Below are positions 5,424 through 27,089 of a stretch of 45,288 nt of DNA, piece by piece (position 1 is the first letter of the stretch; each line of letters starts with the position of its first letter). The position numbers and the translations under genes are program-made. Source of the stretch: Escherichia phage vB_EcoS-phiEc3; sequence record NC_073323.1; one strand, given 5' to 3'. The notes under the pieces were generated by a model. The model was given only the letters and a program-made list of their open reading frames with translations, made no database searches and was not told the origin of the DNA.

Positions 5424-5505
5424 TTGCCTTGCATGTTGGAATAATTTATTCTTGACATGTAAATCCGGGTGGCCCGGGTTCCAACGTCCAGGGGACATAC
5501 TGACT

Positions 5506-6210
5506 ATGAATCGTTTTTTACGTTATCCGTTCCAGGAAGAAGCTGGGGCAGAAGATAAAGCTGGTGGCGGTGACGCGCCGAAAATGTTCACCGCTGAAGA
5601 AGTTCAGGCGCTGATTGAGAAAGAAGTTGCCGGGCTTAAGGCTAATCAGGAAGCATTGTTGGCGGAGAAGAAAGAAGCCGCTCGCAAAGCAAAAGAGGCC
5701 GAAGAAGAACGGCAGCGCGCGCACCAGGAGGCGTTAAAAGCCGCTGGTAAGATGGATGAGTTCGAAAAGACGATTCGTAGCCAGTATGACCCGGTGTTAG
5801 CCGAGAAAGACGGTCGCATCTCCAGAATGGCAGAGCGTATCCTCGGCAGCGAACGTAAAGCGGTGCTAGGCTCTTTCGCGGGTGACTTTATTACCCCAGA
5901 AGCAGTGGACATTCTTGCGCCGTTCGTTAAGACTGAGTTCGAAGGCGATGATGTGGTTACTAAGTTTGTTGGCGCAGACGGCAACGTAATCACGACTGAC
6001 CCGGAACAGTTCCGCAAATACTTGCGAGAACACAAAGCGTTTTCACATTTGATTAAAGCAAATGCAGCTTCCGGCGGCGGGGCTTCCGGTAGCAAAGGCG
6101 GCGGGGCCGCACCAGCGTTTAAAGACATGAGTGAAGCGGAGCGTATCGCTCTGTACGAATCGAACCCTGCCGAATTTGAACGGCAACTTAAAGCCCTGAG
6201 GAAAAAATAA
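5506..6210 (+). CDS. Scaffolding protein
   Basis: Coiled-coil Ala/Glu/Lys-rich protein immediately upstream of major capsid gene; ATG at 5506 after AGGGGA (track ORF starts 5452). Confidence 0.6.
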   Translation: MNRFLRYPFQEEAGAEDKAGGGDAPKMFTAEEVQALIEKEVAGLKANQEALLAEKKEAARKAKEAEEERQRAHQEALKAAGKMDEFEKTIRSQYDPVLAEKDGRISRMAERILGSERKAVLGSFAGDFITPEAVDILAPFVKTEFEGDDVVTKFVGADGNVITTDPEQFRKYLREHKAFSHLIKANAASGGGASGSKGGGAAPAFKDMSEAERIALYESNPAEFERQLKALRKK

Positions 6211-7259
6211 TGGCAATTACTACTATCGGCGACATCGTAACTGGTAAAGAATCGGTAATCCTGTCCTACATGACAGAGGACCCGGTAGAGAAAACCGCGT
6301 TCTTCCAGTCCGGTATCCTTACCTCGACTCCGTATGCCGCCGCTATCGCAAACGGCCCGTCCAACAAAGCGGTCCTGCCGTACTGGAAAGCTATTGATAC
6401 CTCTATCGAGCCGAACTACTCGAACGACGTATATCAGGACGTCGCCACCCCGCGTAACGTGCAAACCGGTGAGATGGATGTTCGCGTAGCTTACCTGAAC
6501 GAAGGTTTTGGTCAGGCTGACCTGACGGTAGAACTGACCAGCCAGAATCCGCTGCAATCCGTGGCTTCCCGTCTGGATAACTTCTGGCAGCGTCAGGCAC
6601 AACGCCGTCTTATTGCTACCGCGCTCGGTCTGTACAATGATAACGTAGCGGCTACCGATGCGTACCACGAGCAGAACGACATGGTTATTGACGTGTCCGC
6701 TACTCTGGGCTTCGACTCCGGCGCGTTCATCGATGCTACCCAGACTATGGGCGATGCGCTGATGGGTAACGGTGGTGAAGTGCTTGGCGCTATCGCGATG
6801 CACAGCTTCGTTTATGCGCAGGCGCGTAAGCAGCAGCTTATCGACTTCATTCGCGACGCTGACAACAACACCATGTTCGCCACCTACCAGGGCTATCGTG
6901 TGATTGTTGACGACAGCATGACCGTAGTCGGAACTGGCAACAGCCGTAAGTTCATCTCCATCATCTTCGGCAACGGTGCTATCGGTTACGGCGAAGGTTC
7001 TCCGTCAAACCCGCTGGAATACGAGCGCGAAGCGTCTCGCGGTAACGGTGGTGGTGTCGAAACCCTGTGGACCCGTAAGACCTGGTTGCTGCATCCGTTT
7101 GGTTACAGTTTCACCAGCACTGTAATCACCGGCAACGGCACCGAGACTATCGCCCGCTCTGCTTCCTGGCAGGACCTGGCGAACGCTTCCAACTGGAACC
7201 GTGTGGTTGACCGTAAGCATGTACCGATTGCCTTCCTGGTAACTGGTGTCGGGGCTTAA
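6210..7259 (+). CDS. Major capsid protein
   Basis: 349 aa, follows scaffold with overlapping stop/start, followed by strong terminator. Confidence 0.7.
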   Translation: MAITTIGDIVTGKESVILSYMTEDPVEKTAFFQSGILTSTPYAAAIANGPSNKAVLPYWKAIDTSIEPNYSNDVYQDVATPRNVQTGEMDVRVAYLNEGFGQADLTVELTSQNPLQSVASRLDNFWQRQAQRRLIATALGLYNDNVAATDAYHEQNDMVIDVSATLGFDSGAFIDATQTMGDALMGNGGEVLGAIAMHSFVYAQARKQQLIDFIRDADNNTMFATYQGYRVIVDDSMTVVGTGNSRKFISIIFGNGAIGYGEGSPSNPLEYEREASRGNGGGVETLWTRKTWLLHPFGYSFTSTVITGNGTETIARSASWQDLANASNWNRVVDRKHVPIAFLVTGVGA

Positions 7260-24731: not shown

Positions 24732-26152
24732 TTCTTACTCCTACGTTTCATATAATTAAGTAGTTCATCCTGTACAGACCTTTTCTCGTCTGTACGCGCC
24801 GCAACAACCTCGTCCAGAGTGTCTTTAGCAACGATGTGATAAAGGAACACCGGGCGCTCGTGACCCGCCTGTTTCTGGCGGACTGGGCCTATGCGCTCAA
24901 CAACCTGCAAATAGTGCTCAAGGTTCCAGCCTTGCGAGATGAACGCCAGATGATGACCCCCGTCCTGTAAATTCAAACCATGCCCGGCTGACGCAGGATG
25001 CACGCATAAAATCTCGATTTCCCCACGGTTCCACGCTTCCATCTGCTTGTTCCCCCTAGCGCCTTTGGCGAACGCCTGTGCCTGTGGGAATCGCTTAAGG
25101 ATACGCTCCAGTTCGTGTTTAAACTGATAGGCTACCAGCAACGGCGCACCCTGCAACTCCTCAACAATCGACTCGAGCGCATCCAGTTTCGTGTCGTGCA
25201 CTTTCTCCCAGTCTTTGGTCGCTTCGCCGTCTGGCCCGGATACATATACAGCACCAGATGCAATCTGCAAGCACTTTGAGGTCTTCGCCGCAGCGTTAGC
25301 CGCTTCAACTTCCCCGCTCTCCAGTTCTGCGAATAACTTCTCCTCCATATCTATGTACGCCTGACGCGCTTTCTTCGGCAGGTCTATTTCAACCGGCACG
25401 ATAACAGGCGCTTCACAACCGAACCACTCGGCAGGGTCTATGGTCAGGCTGATGTCTTTCATCTTCTGATGAATCTCATTATCCGCACCCGGTCGTGCAT
25501 GATACTCGCGGGCCATAGCCGATTTACCTTTCTGTACCGAGTTAAACCAGCGGTCGGTGAATGCTGTGTACGAAGAGCCGAGGCGCTCGCCAGCGTCGAT
25601 AAACCAGTTCTGACCCCACAAGTCTTTGAGGCCGTTTGGTGACGGTGTGCCTGTCAGGTTGATGAAACGCTTAACCTTTCCGAACGCAACCTTGCTGAGC
25701 GCCTTTGCCCGCTTGCTACCACCCGAACGGCTGCGGAACGATTTAAGCTTCGTGCTTTCATCGGCAACGATAACCGTAAAAGGCCAGTCGTCTTTGCCGT
25801 AGTAGTCAATTAGCCACTCGATAACTTCGTAGTTAGTGCACACCACGTTAGCATCTGACTCCAGCGCTGCGATGCGGCGCTTCTCCGAACCAGTTGCATC
25901 TACGACACGCAGACAAGGGAATTGCCATTTCTCTTGTTCAGCAGGCCACGTACCGGACGCAACACGTAACGGGGCAAGGATTAACACGCGGTCCTCTTCC
26001 GTAAGCTGCCCGTTGCGGAACAGGCGGTTGAGCACCCACATAGTGGAGGAGGTTTTACCTCCCCCCATTCCGCACCAGATATTACAGCGCGGGTGTTGCA
26101 GCATGAACGAGGTCATGAGCTTCTGGTACTCGCGTCTTTGAAACTTACTCAT
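24728..26152 (-). CDS. SF2 helicase (DEAD/DEAH-like)
   Basis: Walker A GMGGGKTSS, motif II DESTK, 474 aa. Confidence 0.7.
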   Translation of the reverse strand: MSKFQRREYQKLMTSFMLQHPRCNIWCGMGGGKTSSTMWVLNRLFRNGQLTEEDRVLILAPLRVASGTWPAEQEKWQFPCLRVVDATGSEKRRIAALESDANVVCTNYEVIEWLIDYYGKDDWPFTVIVADESTKLKSFRSRSGGSKRAKALSKVAFGKVKRFINLTGTPSPNGLKDLWGQNWFIDAGERLGSSYTAFTDRWFNSVQKGKSAMAREYHARPGADNEIHQKMKDISLTIDPAEWFGCEAPVIVPVEIDLPKKARQAYIDMEEKLFAELESGEVEAANAAAKTSKCLQIASGAVYVSGPDGEATKDWEKVHDTKLDALESIVEELQGAPLLVAYQFKHELERILKRFPQAQAFAKGARGNKQMEAWNRGEIEILCVHPASAGHGLNLQDGGHHLAFISQGWNLEHYLQVVERIGPVRQKQAGHERPVFLYHIVAKDTLDEVVAARTDEKRSVQDELLNYMKRRSKK

Positions 26153-27089
26153 TTACCGCCCCCATGAATGCCTTTATAAATTCAGCGGCTACTTGCGGGA
26201 CGATGGCATTGCCGTAACCGCGCAATCGTCCCACTCTGGCGGGTATCCCATTAGCCAGCGGGAATGCGCCGGGTTCAACTGGCCGGAATTTTCCATCCCG
26301 GCAGCCGAGCCAGTCAGCATCTGACCAGAAGCCGTGATGCGAATTGGTTGCGTTATCGCCGCTGCTTGTGCCACGTCTTGAGGTCCACCCTTCCTCTGAA
26401 TCTCCGATAGTGCCCCCTCTAGTGTTCTCACGTTCTTTTCCCCGTCCGCACTGCGAGGAGTAGGCCAATTCGTCAGTTTTAGCCCCTGTTCCGTTGAGTA
26501 GTCCAGCCTGTCGAATGTTCTGTCCTTCCCGTCCTTGCGGATAACAGTCTCTCCGCTCCCTTTGTAATCGTTCGCGGTCGGTGTCGGCCAATTCGTGCGC
26601 ACCAAAGAAGAGTCGTTCTCTTTTGTGCGGAGCGCCGACGCTACAAGCTGGGAGTACGGCAAACCCGACGGCGTAGTCTTCTCCTTCCAGGTGAGTTTGT
26701 AAATCGCACATCCACGATTTTGCAATTGCTGGCGCAACCTGCTCCCCAAAGAGGACTGGAGGGTGGCACTCGCTGATGAGGTCAAGGAATACGGGCGCGA
26801 GGTGTCTCGGGTCGAACTGTCCGAGTTGCTTTCCTGCCGTGCTAAACGGTTGGCAAGGCGGGCTTCCCGTCCAGAGAGGCGTATCTTCCGGAACTCCCGC
26901 AAGTCTGAGCGCGAGAGGCCAGCCGCCGATACCAGCGAAAAAATGACACTGGGTGAATCCGTCGAGGTCTTCTGGCTTAACTTCAGTAATGCTTCTTTCA
27001 TCTACAACTCCAAAAGGTATGTGACCCTGTTTTATTAATTCACGCAGCCACGCGGCTGCGCCTTTATCCCATTCGTTGTAATAGTTCAT
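26145..27089 (-). CDS. DNA (cytosine-5)-methyltransferase with apparent frame discontinuity
   Basis: Motifs I FAGIGG, IV PCQPFS, VIII PHKRERLFF and X YGNAIVPQV in this frame; motif IX and TRD-like repeats lie in overlapping frame 26189-27001. Confidence 0.6.
   Translation of the reverse strand: MNYYNEWDKGAAAWLRELIKQGHIPFGVVDERSITEVKPEDLDGFTQCHFFAGIGGWPLALRLAGVPEDTPLWTGSPPCQPFSTAGKQLGQFDPRHLAPVFLDLISECHPPVLFGEQVAPAIAKSWMCDLQTHLEGEDYAVGFAVLPACSVGAPHKRERLFFGAHELADTDRERLQRERRDCYPQGREGQNIRQAGLLNGTGAKTDELAYSSQCGRGKERENTRGGTIGDSEEGWTSRRGTSSGDNATNSHHGFWSDADWLGCRDGKFRPVEPGAFPLANGIPARVGRLRGYGNAIVPQVAAEFIKAFMGAVNE

Follow-up and report, generated by a model that had tools for sequence, protein, structure and literature searches.

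The 45,288-nt sequence considered here (NC_073323.1; hereafter the window, meaning the whole stretch analysed) is the essentially complete genome of Escherichia phage vB_EcoS-phiEc3, a Kagunavirus (K1G-like, Guernseyvirinae). On its minus strand lie two intact open reading frames (ORFs), of which ORF B is read in the +1 frame relative to ORF A and is fully nested within it. No other nested same-strand pair occurs among the 35 ORFs of at least 150 amino acids (aa) in the window. An earlier sequence-only reading had described the locus as a C5-cytosine methyltransferase (C5-methyltransferase) gene whose motifs were divided between two frames by an apparent double frameshift. Both ORFs lie at 26145-27089 and 26189-27001, where that reading had placed them, and all the motifs it quoted are present. 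The comparative evidence points instead to two nested genes coding for the subunits, here called alpha (ORF A) and beta (ORF B), of a single enzyme. The two products belong to separate PHROGs families, phrog_363 (alpha) and phrog_1008 (beta). The methylase region is 99.8% identical to that of Escherichia phage vB_EcoS-phiEc4 (MZ576218). The features of the locus are collected in Table 1.

Table 1. Features of the nested methyltransferase locus in the window (AdoMet, S-adenosylmethionine; R2 and R4, dual-coded blocks; subunit roles are putative)
Feature	Coordinates	Strand	Description
ORF A (alpha subunit)	26145..27089	-	314 aa incl. stop; PF00145 59.8 bits; phrog_363 E=2e-87, full length
ORF A, make-up			catalytic/AdoMet-binding core, then unconstrained linker, conserved C-terminal block, motif X
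Alpha motif I	26922..26939	-	FAGIGG, aa 51-56; aligned to M.HhaI FAGLGG; AdoMet binding
Alpha motif IV	26841..26861	-	PPCQPFS, aa 77-83; aligned to M.HhaI PCQAFS; putative catalytic Cys79
Alpha motif VI variant	26736..26750	-	FGEQV, aa 114-118; aligned to M.HhaI FMENV; canonical ENV
Alpha motif VIII	26604..26630	-	PHKRERLFF, aa 154-162; aligned to M.HhaI PQKRERIYM
Alpha motif X	26175..26219	-	GYGNAIVPQVAAEFI, aa 291-305; coded in frame A only; beta ends at 26189
ORF B (beta subunit)	26189..27001	-	270 aa incl. stop; N-terminus MKEALLK...; +1 frame inside ORF A; phrog_1008 E=2.4e-61
Beta N-terminal extension	26771..27001	-	aa 1-77; alternate-frame 'shadow' of alpha motifs I-VI
Beta motifs			TNWPTPTAND, aa 136-145; TNWPTPRSAD, aa 177-186; motif IX-like QLNPAHSRWLMGYPPEWDD, aa 241-259
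Dual-coded block R2	26610..26729	-	alpha: motif VII-VIII region; beta: conserved N-block YKLTWKEKTTPSG...ASALRT
Hypervariable middle, beta reading	26340..26594	-	WPTP-repeat region (WPTP at 26579-26590 and 26456-26467); candidate target-recognition cassettes
Hypervariable middle, alpha reading			low-complexity R/G/E-rich linker, aa 166-250; includes ERLQRERRDCYPQGR
Dual-coded block R4	26220..26339	-	alpha: C-block GFWSDADWLGCRDGKFRPVEPGAFPLANGIPARVGRLR; beta: C-block ending in motif IX-like QLNPAHSRWLMGYPPEW (26231-26281)
Shine-Dalgarno-like GGAG	27008..27011	-	6 nt upstream of beta ATG (27001-26999); inside alpha codons for F-G-V-V-D-E

Each of the C5-methyltransferase motifs I, IV, VI and VIII has a counterpart in alpha that is conserved across relatives, and the alignment of alpha with M.HhaI takes in motifs I and IV-VIII. 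The residues invariant among relatives are G53 and I54 in motif I (with A52 and G55 at least 90% conserved), P78, C79, Q80, F82 and S83 in motif IV, G115, E116, Q117 and V118 in motif VI, and R157 and R159 in motif VIII. In the proposed motif X, G293, N294, I296 and A301 are invariant, and the segment is not aligned by either the Pfam or the TIGR00675 model. PF00145 matches ORF A at aa 71-166 only (59.8 bits against a gathering cut-off of 22; profile positions 63-162 of 324), the alignment ending at motif VIII, and it does not match ORF B. A search of NCBIfam returned only a sub-threshold match of alpha to TIGR00675 and nothing meaningful for beta. The target-recognition domain (TRD) and motif IX are not found in the chain that carries the catalytic motifs, since the WPTP repeats and the motif IX-like block occur only in frame B, and no single reading frame has all ten C5-methyltransferase motifs.

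Three observations on alpha stand apart. Its N-terminus, YYNEWDKGAAAWL (aa 3-13, 27050-27083), resembles the YSNEWDKYAQE segment of M.HhaI (motif II region), yet it precedes motif I and does not follow it; an 'SI..V.P.DL' segment also precedes motif I. The N-terminal motif order of the alpha family may be locally permuted, the HMMER score for this segment being not significant. In addition, alpha has an in-frame insertion of about 170-180 aa between the C-block (...CRDGK.RPVE...) and motif X at loci L028/L029 (600-2034) and L077 (591-1989), just downstream of the end of beta; it may be an inserted domain or a mobile element.

The openness of the two frames exceeds what chance would give. The third frame across the ORF A gene contains 18 stops. 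Both frames are open in 37 of 37 non-redundant viral relatives, and not one (0/37) has a stop in the alpha middle or in the N-terminal part of beta. When codons were shuffled synonymously with each gene's own codon usage kept, the geometric-mean probability per locus of remaining free of stops was 0.04 for frame A across the middle and 0.43 for frame B across its N-terminal part; the loci are phylogenetically non-independent, so combined probabilities overstate significance. The view of the sequence-only reading that both frames are unlikely to stay open by chance was thus borne out.

Selection on the two frames was assessed by codon-phase entropy and by the Nei-Gojobori ratio of nonsynonymous to synonymous differences (pN/pS), from pairwise counts over 33 non-redundant loci and, for the hypervariable middle, 16 close pairs. 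From 27089 to 26760 only frame A is constrained (pN/pS 0.33 for A, 1.31 for B and 1.40 for the control frame), and variation falls at codon position 2 of frame B. From 26729 to 26610 both frames are constrained (A 0.56, B 0.86, control 1.40); here the synonymous rate of A falls from 0.755 to 0.555 and all three codon phases are damped. The hypervariable middle, 26594-26340, is constrained in frame B only (B 0.23, A 1.06, control 1.40). Both frames are again under selection from 26339 to 26220 (A 0.56, B 0.69, control 1.16), where both readings are conserved even in distant loci, and the last segment, 26219-26160, is constrained in A only (A 0.33, B 1.50). This pattern, with A-only ends, two dual-coded blocks and a B-only middle, fits two proteins. 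Frame B is genuinely coding, as had been suspected from the sequence. The junctions between the plausible parts of the two frames had been estimated at 26590-26615 and 26215-26232, in agreement with the boundaries measured here from substitution patterns.

The alpha middle and the first ~77 residues of beta are not selected as protein sequence, yet both are kept free of stops. A segment held open although its sequence is not selected would be expected where ribosomes have to pass through it on the way to a functional part further along. Both ORFs would thus probably be translated in full.

At the sequence level, beta has a start signal of its own, and it lies within the alpha coding sequence. 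In the clade of the window (site 1), the alpha codons GTA-GAT-GAA (V-D-E) give TAG-ATG in the beta frame, preceded by GGAG. The sequence ttGGAGttgtagATG is common to Kagunavirus-type relatives, and most other site-1 loci have a purine-rich stretch instead. Other clades use a second site, at which a conserved Arg-Ser of alpha is encoded (A/C)GG-AG(C/T), with the rarest Arg codon, and so spells GGAG. All 34 loci with GGAG at the Arg-Ser have an ATG at a fixed distance downstream and lack the site 1 ATG, and GGAG is never spelled there at the 34 loci with site 1 (GAT-G); the clades are related, so that these 34 + 34 loci are not 68 independent events. Every locus examined has a frame B ATG close to the start of the alpha gene; where this ATG and the conserved beta block were both located (44 of 75 loci), the ATG precedes the block by 97-107 codons. 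An internal ribosome-binding site is the one ready explanation for these alpha codon choices. The sequences are consistent with beta being translated independently from an internal start, with a dispensable N-terminus.

The same two-frame layout was found in 227 phage records. A scan of viral contigs with frame A gave 79 loci, with frame A identity down to ~42%; the pair of open frames recurs in 75 viral loci. Frame A is open from end to end in nearly all of them, and the +1 frame opens ~50-115 nt after the A start and closes near the A stop, mostly a few tens of nt short of it and in occasional loci just beyond. WPTP and NP....WLMG motifs are confined to the +1 frame, and open stretches in the third frame are of ordinary length, 45-110 codons. 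In one relative, L063 (600-1743), frame B is open for 203 codons only and stops before the motif IX-like block, and the alpha segment before motif X is divergent; it may be a decaying or rearranged copy.

Homologues of beta are numerous. The beta search yielded 4,732 scored homologues, and an exhaustive search with the protein-like part of frame B gave 9,447 clusters at 50% identity. The match invariably ends proteins of 200-500 aa; only two of ten sampled, P0207 (758 aa) and P0203 (497 aa), run on beyond it into a fused domain. PF00145 was detected in none of the ten sampled. The apparently conserved N-terminal motifs of beta homologues, such as ISLPESEGGP, are the +1-frame reading of alpha motif I (DLFAGIGG), so that these homologues, too, are nested in methylase genes. 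Domain fusions were observed in both frames. Alpha at L030 (600-2205) continues into a Dam-like N6-adenine methyltransferase domain (...DPPY), and beta is joined to PF05869 Dam in P0203, to DUF2800/PD-(D/E)XK in P0207 and to an HNH-like tail in P0187.

Cellular genomes were scanned with a single strict beta pattern, one genome per species; 270 stretches matched, 80 loci were listed and 75 of these were complete. Among the matches listed, the loci belong to Alpha-, Beta- and Gammaproteobacteria and a few other phyla. At all 75 complete loci the beta ORF (median 314 codons open) lies inside an open stretch in the -1 frame (median 370 codons), whereas the median open length of the third frame there is 12 codons. 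Motifs I, IV and X are all present in the alpha stretch at 60 of the 75 loci, and IV and X at 66. All relatives seen in the E. coli genomes and plasmids searched lay in prophages or phage-plasmids, and none had a restriction partner.

The middle of the gene varies in a distinctive way. Among Kagunavirus relatives whose flanks share 93-100% identity, sub-blocks of 26594-26325 have been replaced or deleted independently. K1ind1, Golestan and IMG/VR contig 3300010278_000001 are examples of relatives set apart from the phage by these sub-blocks alone. The number of WPTP units per beta ranges from 0 to 5 among viral loci, and beta length from 217 to 342 aa among close relatives. The hypervariable middle behaves like a set of exchangeable specificity cassettes. 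The variable WPTP-repeat region of beta most likely recognizes the DNA target; recognition is placed in beta because selection on the variable region acts in the beta frame (0.23) and not in the alpha frame (1.06).

Taken together, the evidence is best explained by a conserved C5-methyltransferase of the M.EcoHK31I type whose two subunits come from nested genes, the recognition region lying in the nested subunit; this reading is given a probability of about 0.78. M.EcoHK31I, from E. coli HK31 (YGGCCR), is a two-chain C5-methyltransferase whose chains must associate and are both required (PMC2836561). By analogy, alpha would be translated from the ATG at 27089 and supply the large catalytic domain (motifs I, IV, VI and VIII), reading on through the unconstrained linker to the conserved C-terminal block and motif X. 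Beta would be translated independently from its own Shine-Dalgarno sequence and ATG at 27001, and would consist of a dispensable alternate-frame extension followed by the conserved N-block, the WPTP-repeat region and the motif IX-like block. The two would then assemble, as in M.EcoHK31I, into one active orphan methyltransferase forming 5-methylcytosine. By analogy with phage orphan methylases in general, such an enzyme would shield the phage genome from restriction by the host. The arrangement itself may have arisen through ancient compensating frame changes.

Several points weigh against this interpretation. The support for both products in the phage is at the level of sequence, and the non-independence of the loci bears on the openness test as stated above. 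The motif IX assignment of beta is an 18-residue resemblance that is statistically not significant: the sole hhalign alignment of the beta profile to M.HhaI (whose sequence was checked in part) covers motif IX, residues 273-290, with E=0.26. Pfam detects neither motif IX nor motif X in alpha, in beta or in an A-B-A chimera. The chimera scored 61.4 bits against PF00145, compared with 59.8 for alpha alone, and spliced IX + X tails likewise brought no gain, so the Pfam test cannot discriminate between the models. The beta profile had only spurious matches among Protein Data Bank sequences, and a 53-aa query from the beta C-block had one spurious match, to a repeat protein. AlphaFold2 was uninformative. 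The model of beta aa 78-270, from a 76-sequence alignment, had a predicted local distance difference test score (pLDDT) of 64.8 and a predicted template modelling score of 0.30, with a helix and beta-hairpin in the N-block (R2; pLDDT 77-89) and a floppy middle; that of alpha, from an alignment restricted to sequences at least 74% identical, had a pLDDT of 33.6. Finally, the likeness to M.EcoHK31I is one of architecture, and in that enzyme the TRD is predicted in alpha, with only motif IX in beta, whereas the recognition region here is apparently in beta.

Some of the same points would suit an alpha that is a self-sufficient short methyltransferase using its own C-block (FWSDADW..CRDGK.RP.EPG), with beta an independent overprinted protein, for example an accessory DNA-binding or regulatory one. 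The alpha C-block is conserved even where beta diverges, as in L078, which also counts against the two-subunit interpretation; the non-significant motif IX match fits as well, and the occasional fusion of beta to other domains (Dam in P0203, DUF2800 in P0207) suggests some modular independence. However, the alpha middle is unconstrained (pN/pS 1.06), which would leave ~40 residues for the small domain, and the conserved blocks of beta stand at the canonical TRD and motif IX positions, the best hhalign placement being on motif IX of M.HhaI. In addition, M.EcoHK31I has the same layout and needs both chains (PMC2836561; PMC3404938). A self-sufficient alpha is therefore considered unlikely. Compensating sequencing indels or a recently inactivated pseudogene, both raised in the sequence-only reading, find an echo in the two 'incomplete' pieces called in E. 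coli ECCTRSRTH03 by the Prokaryotic Genome Annotation Pipeline (PGAP). The same nested ORFs nevertheless recur in independently sequenced phages, in the 227 phage records, in viral loci and in cellular loci of many genera, down to ~42% identity, and both frames are intact across relatives and under purifying selection. These comparative data refute artefact and decay alike, leaving them practically no probability; no close relative with a single-frame gene across the region was seen.

The remaining alternative is a programmed double frameshift; the sequence-only reading held that a functional enzyme would need an A-to-B and a B-to-A shift. One ribosome would read A, shift +1 into B after motif VIII and shift -1 back to A before motif X, giving a fused product either alone or beside alpha and beta. 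The order of motifs along the DNA (I-VIII, TRD-like, IX-like, X) is indeed that of a canonical C5-methyltransferase once two frame changes are allowed, and the most strongly selected frame follows the A-B-A pattern. Yet the B-to-A junction lacks an X_XXY_YYZ slippery site in all 69 loci, and in nine diverse loci the A-to-B junction has no conserved stop, hungry-codon or +1 context and varies freely within coding limits. Recoding would also leave unexplained why both abandoned segments are kept open (the stop-free middle of frame A and the stop-free first ~90 codons of frame B), the conserved Shine-Dalgarno sequence and ATG of beta, and the constraint on 26220-26339 as read in alpha and on 26610-26729 as read in beta. 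To our knowledge, two efficient consecutive ribosomal shifts are without precedent. A double frameshift as the basis of the enzyme is thus very improbable; a minor frameshift product may exist. Nor are the shifts needed, as M.EcoHK31I is reconstituted from two nested, separately translated polypeptides (PMC2836561; PMC3404938). From the earlier interpretation, the coding status of frame B and the non-accidental openness of both frames are retained, and error, disruption and recoding are largely given up in favour of the nested two-subunit enzyme.

The nested arrangement also accounts for the inconsistent annotation of relatives. Only the frame B ORF is annotated in phiEc4, as a 'putative methyltransferase'; K1ind1 and fTaEco01 have both ORFs, as 'C-specific methylase' and 'Mte8-like protein'; and ST20 has only a 217-aa piece of frame B, as hypothetical. 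In E. coli prophages, PGAP calls either alpha only or two 'incomplete' pseudogene pieces (strain ECCTRSRTH03). No description of the nested architecture in phages was found in the literature searched on Mte8, Guernseyvirinae methyltransferases or overlapping phage methyltransferase genes. The architecture itself is known but rarely cited; of chief interest is that it is family-wide, ancient and inconsistently annotated. The evidence tips slightly towards a broader proposal, that the M.EcoHK31I layout is the universal, ancient state of a very large phage and prophage C5-methyltransferase family (at least 9,447 beta clusters at 50% identity), with the recognition subunit in the alternate frame of the catalytic gene and with WPTP cassettes that are exchangeable, perhaps multispecific, and obliged to remain without stops in both frames.

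If this is true, the pair (~810 nt) ranks, for bacteria or phages, with the longest nested genes on one strand and with the most deeply conserved ones, and both the annotation of the family (alpha only, beta only or 'pseudogene') and the prediction of its specificity are systematically wrong. If the two-subunit reading is right, nested two-polypeptide C5-methyltransferases would be common in phages, whereas only two natural two-polypeptide cases are cited in PMC3404938. Target recognition on a separately translated subunit would alter both the prediction and the engineering of specificity, split-methyltransferase targeting tools being one example. For research on overlapping genes, the locus offers a deeply conserved dual-coding system of ~270 codons with separable regimes (A only, B only, both and open-only), and natural cassette swapping under a two-frame constraint.

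The methylase locus is located within the replication module, where a VRR-NUC nuclease and a family-A DNA polymerase adjoin. No restriction enzyme was found near it. The alpha ATG at 27089 overlaps the stop of an upstream 63-aa ORF (ATGA, 27086-27089), and the alpha stop region overlaps the start of a SNF2-type helicase gene by 8 nt (26145-26152); these overlaps suggest translational coupling along a replication operon. Elsewhere in the window, a GTG-initiated ORF of 385 aa (5646-6803, minus strand) lies antisense to the plus-strand ORFs 5452-6210 and 6210-7259 and is the longest antisense ORF in the window.

Among known systems, the Bacillus phage SPR/phi3T-type multispecific C5-methyltransferases are phage-borne orphan enzymes whose variable region has several tandem recognition modules. 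The 0-5 WPTP units exchanged as sub-blocks in beta resemble this organization, the correspondence between unit and target being only a candidate one; the SPR/phi3T enzymes are, in contrast, single polypeptides. Monomers of the M.HhaI type share with the locus the alignment of alpha over motifs I and IV-VIII and the canonical motif order along the DNA, and differ in holding all ten motifs in one frame. C5-methyltransferases are otherwise monomers, and M.AquI and M.EcoHK31I are named as the exceptions (PMC3404938). M.AquI (CYCGRG) is a natural heterodimer split in the variable region, and it shows that detached C5-methyltransferase halves can reassemble (PMC3404938). Its large subunit carries motifs I-VIII and its small one IX and X, a simple N/C split, whereas here the genes are nested and motif X is back in alpha. 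M.EcoHK31I is the closest match at the level of motifs, with I-VIII and the proposed X in alpha, a putative motif IX in beta, and beta fully nested in the other frame. The first 42 aa of its beta subunit are dispensable, and internal methionines inside alpha are used as starts (PMC2836561), which matches the unconstrained N-terminal extension of beta described here. M.EcoHK31I belongs to a restriction-modification system, whereas the enzyme proposed here would be an orphan in a phage replication module.

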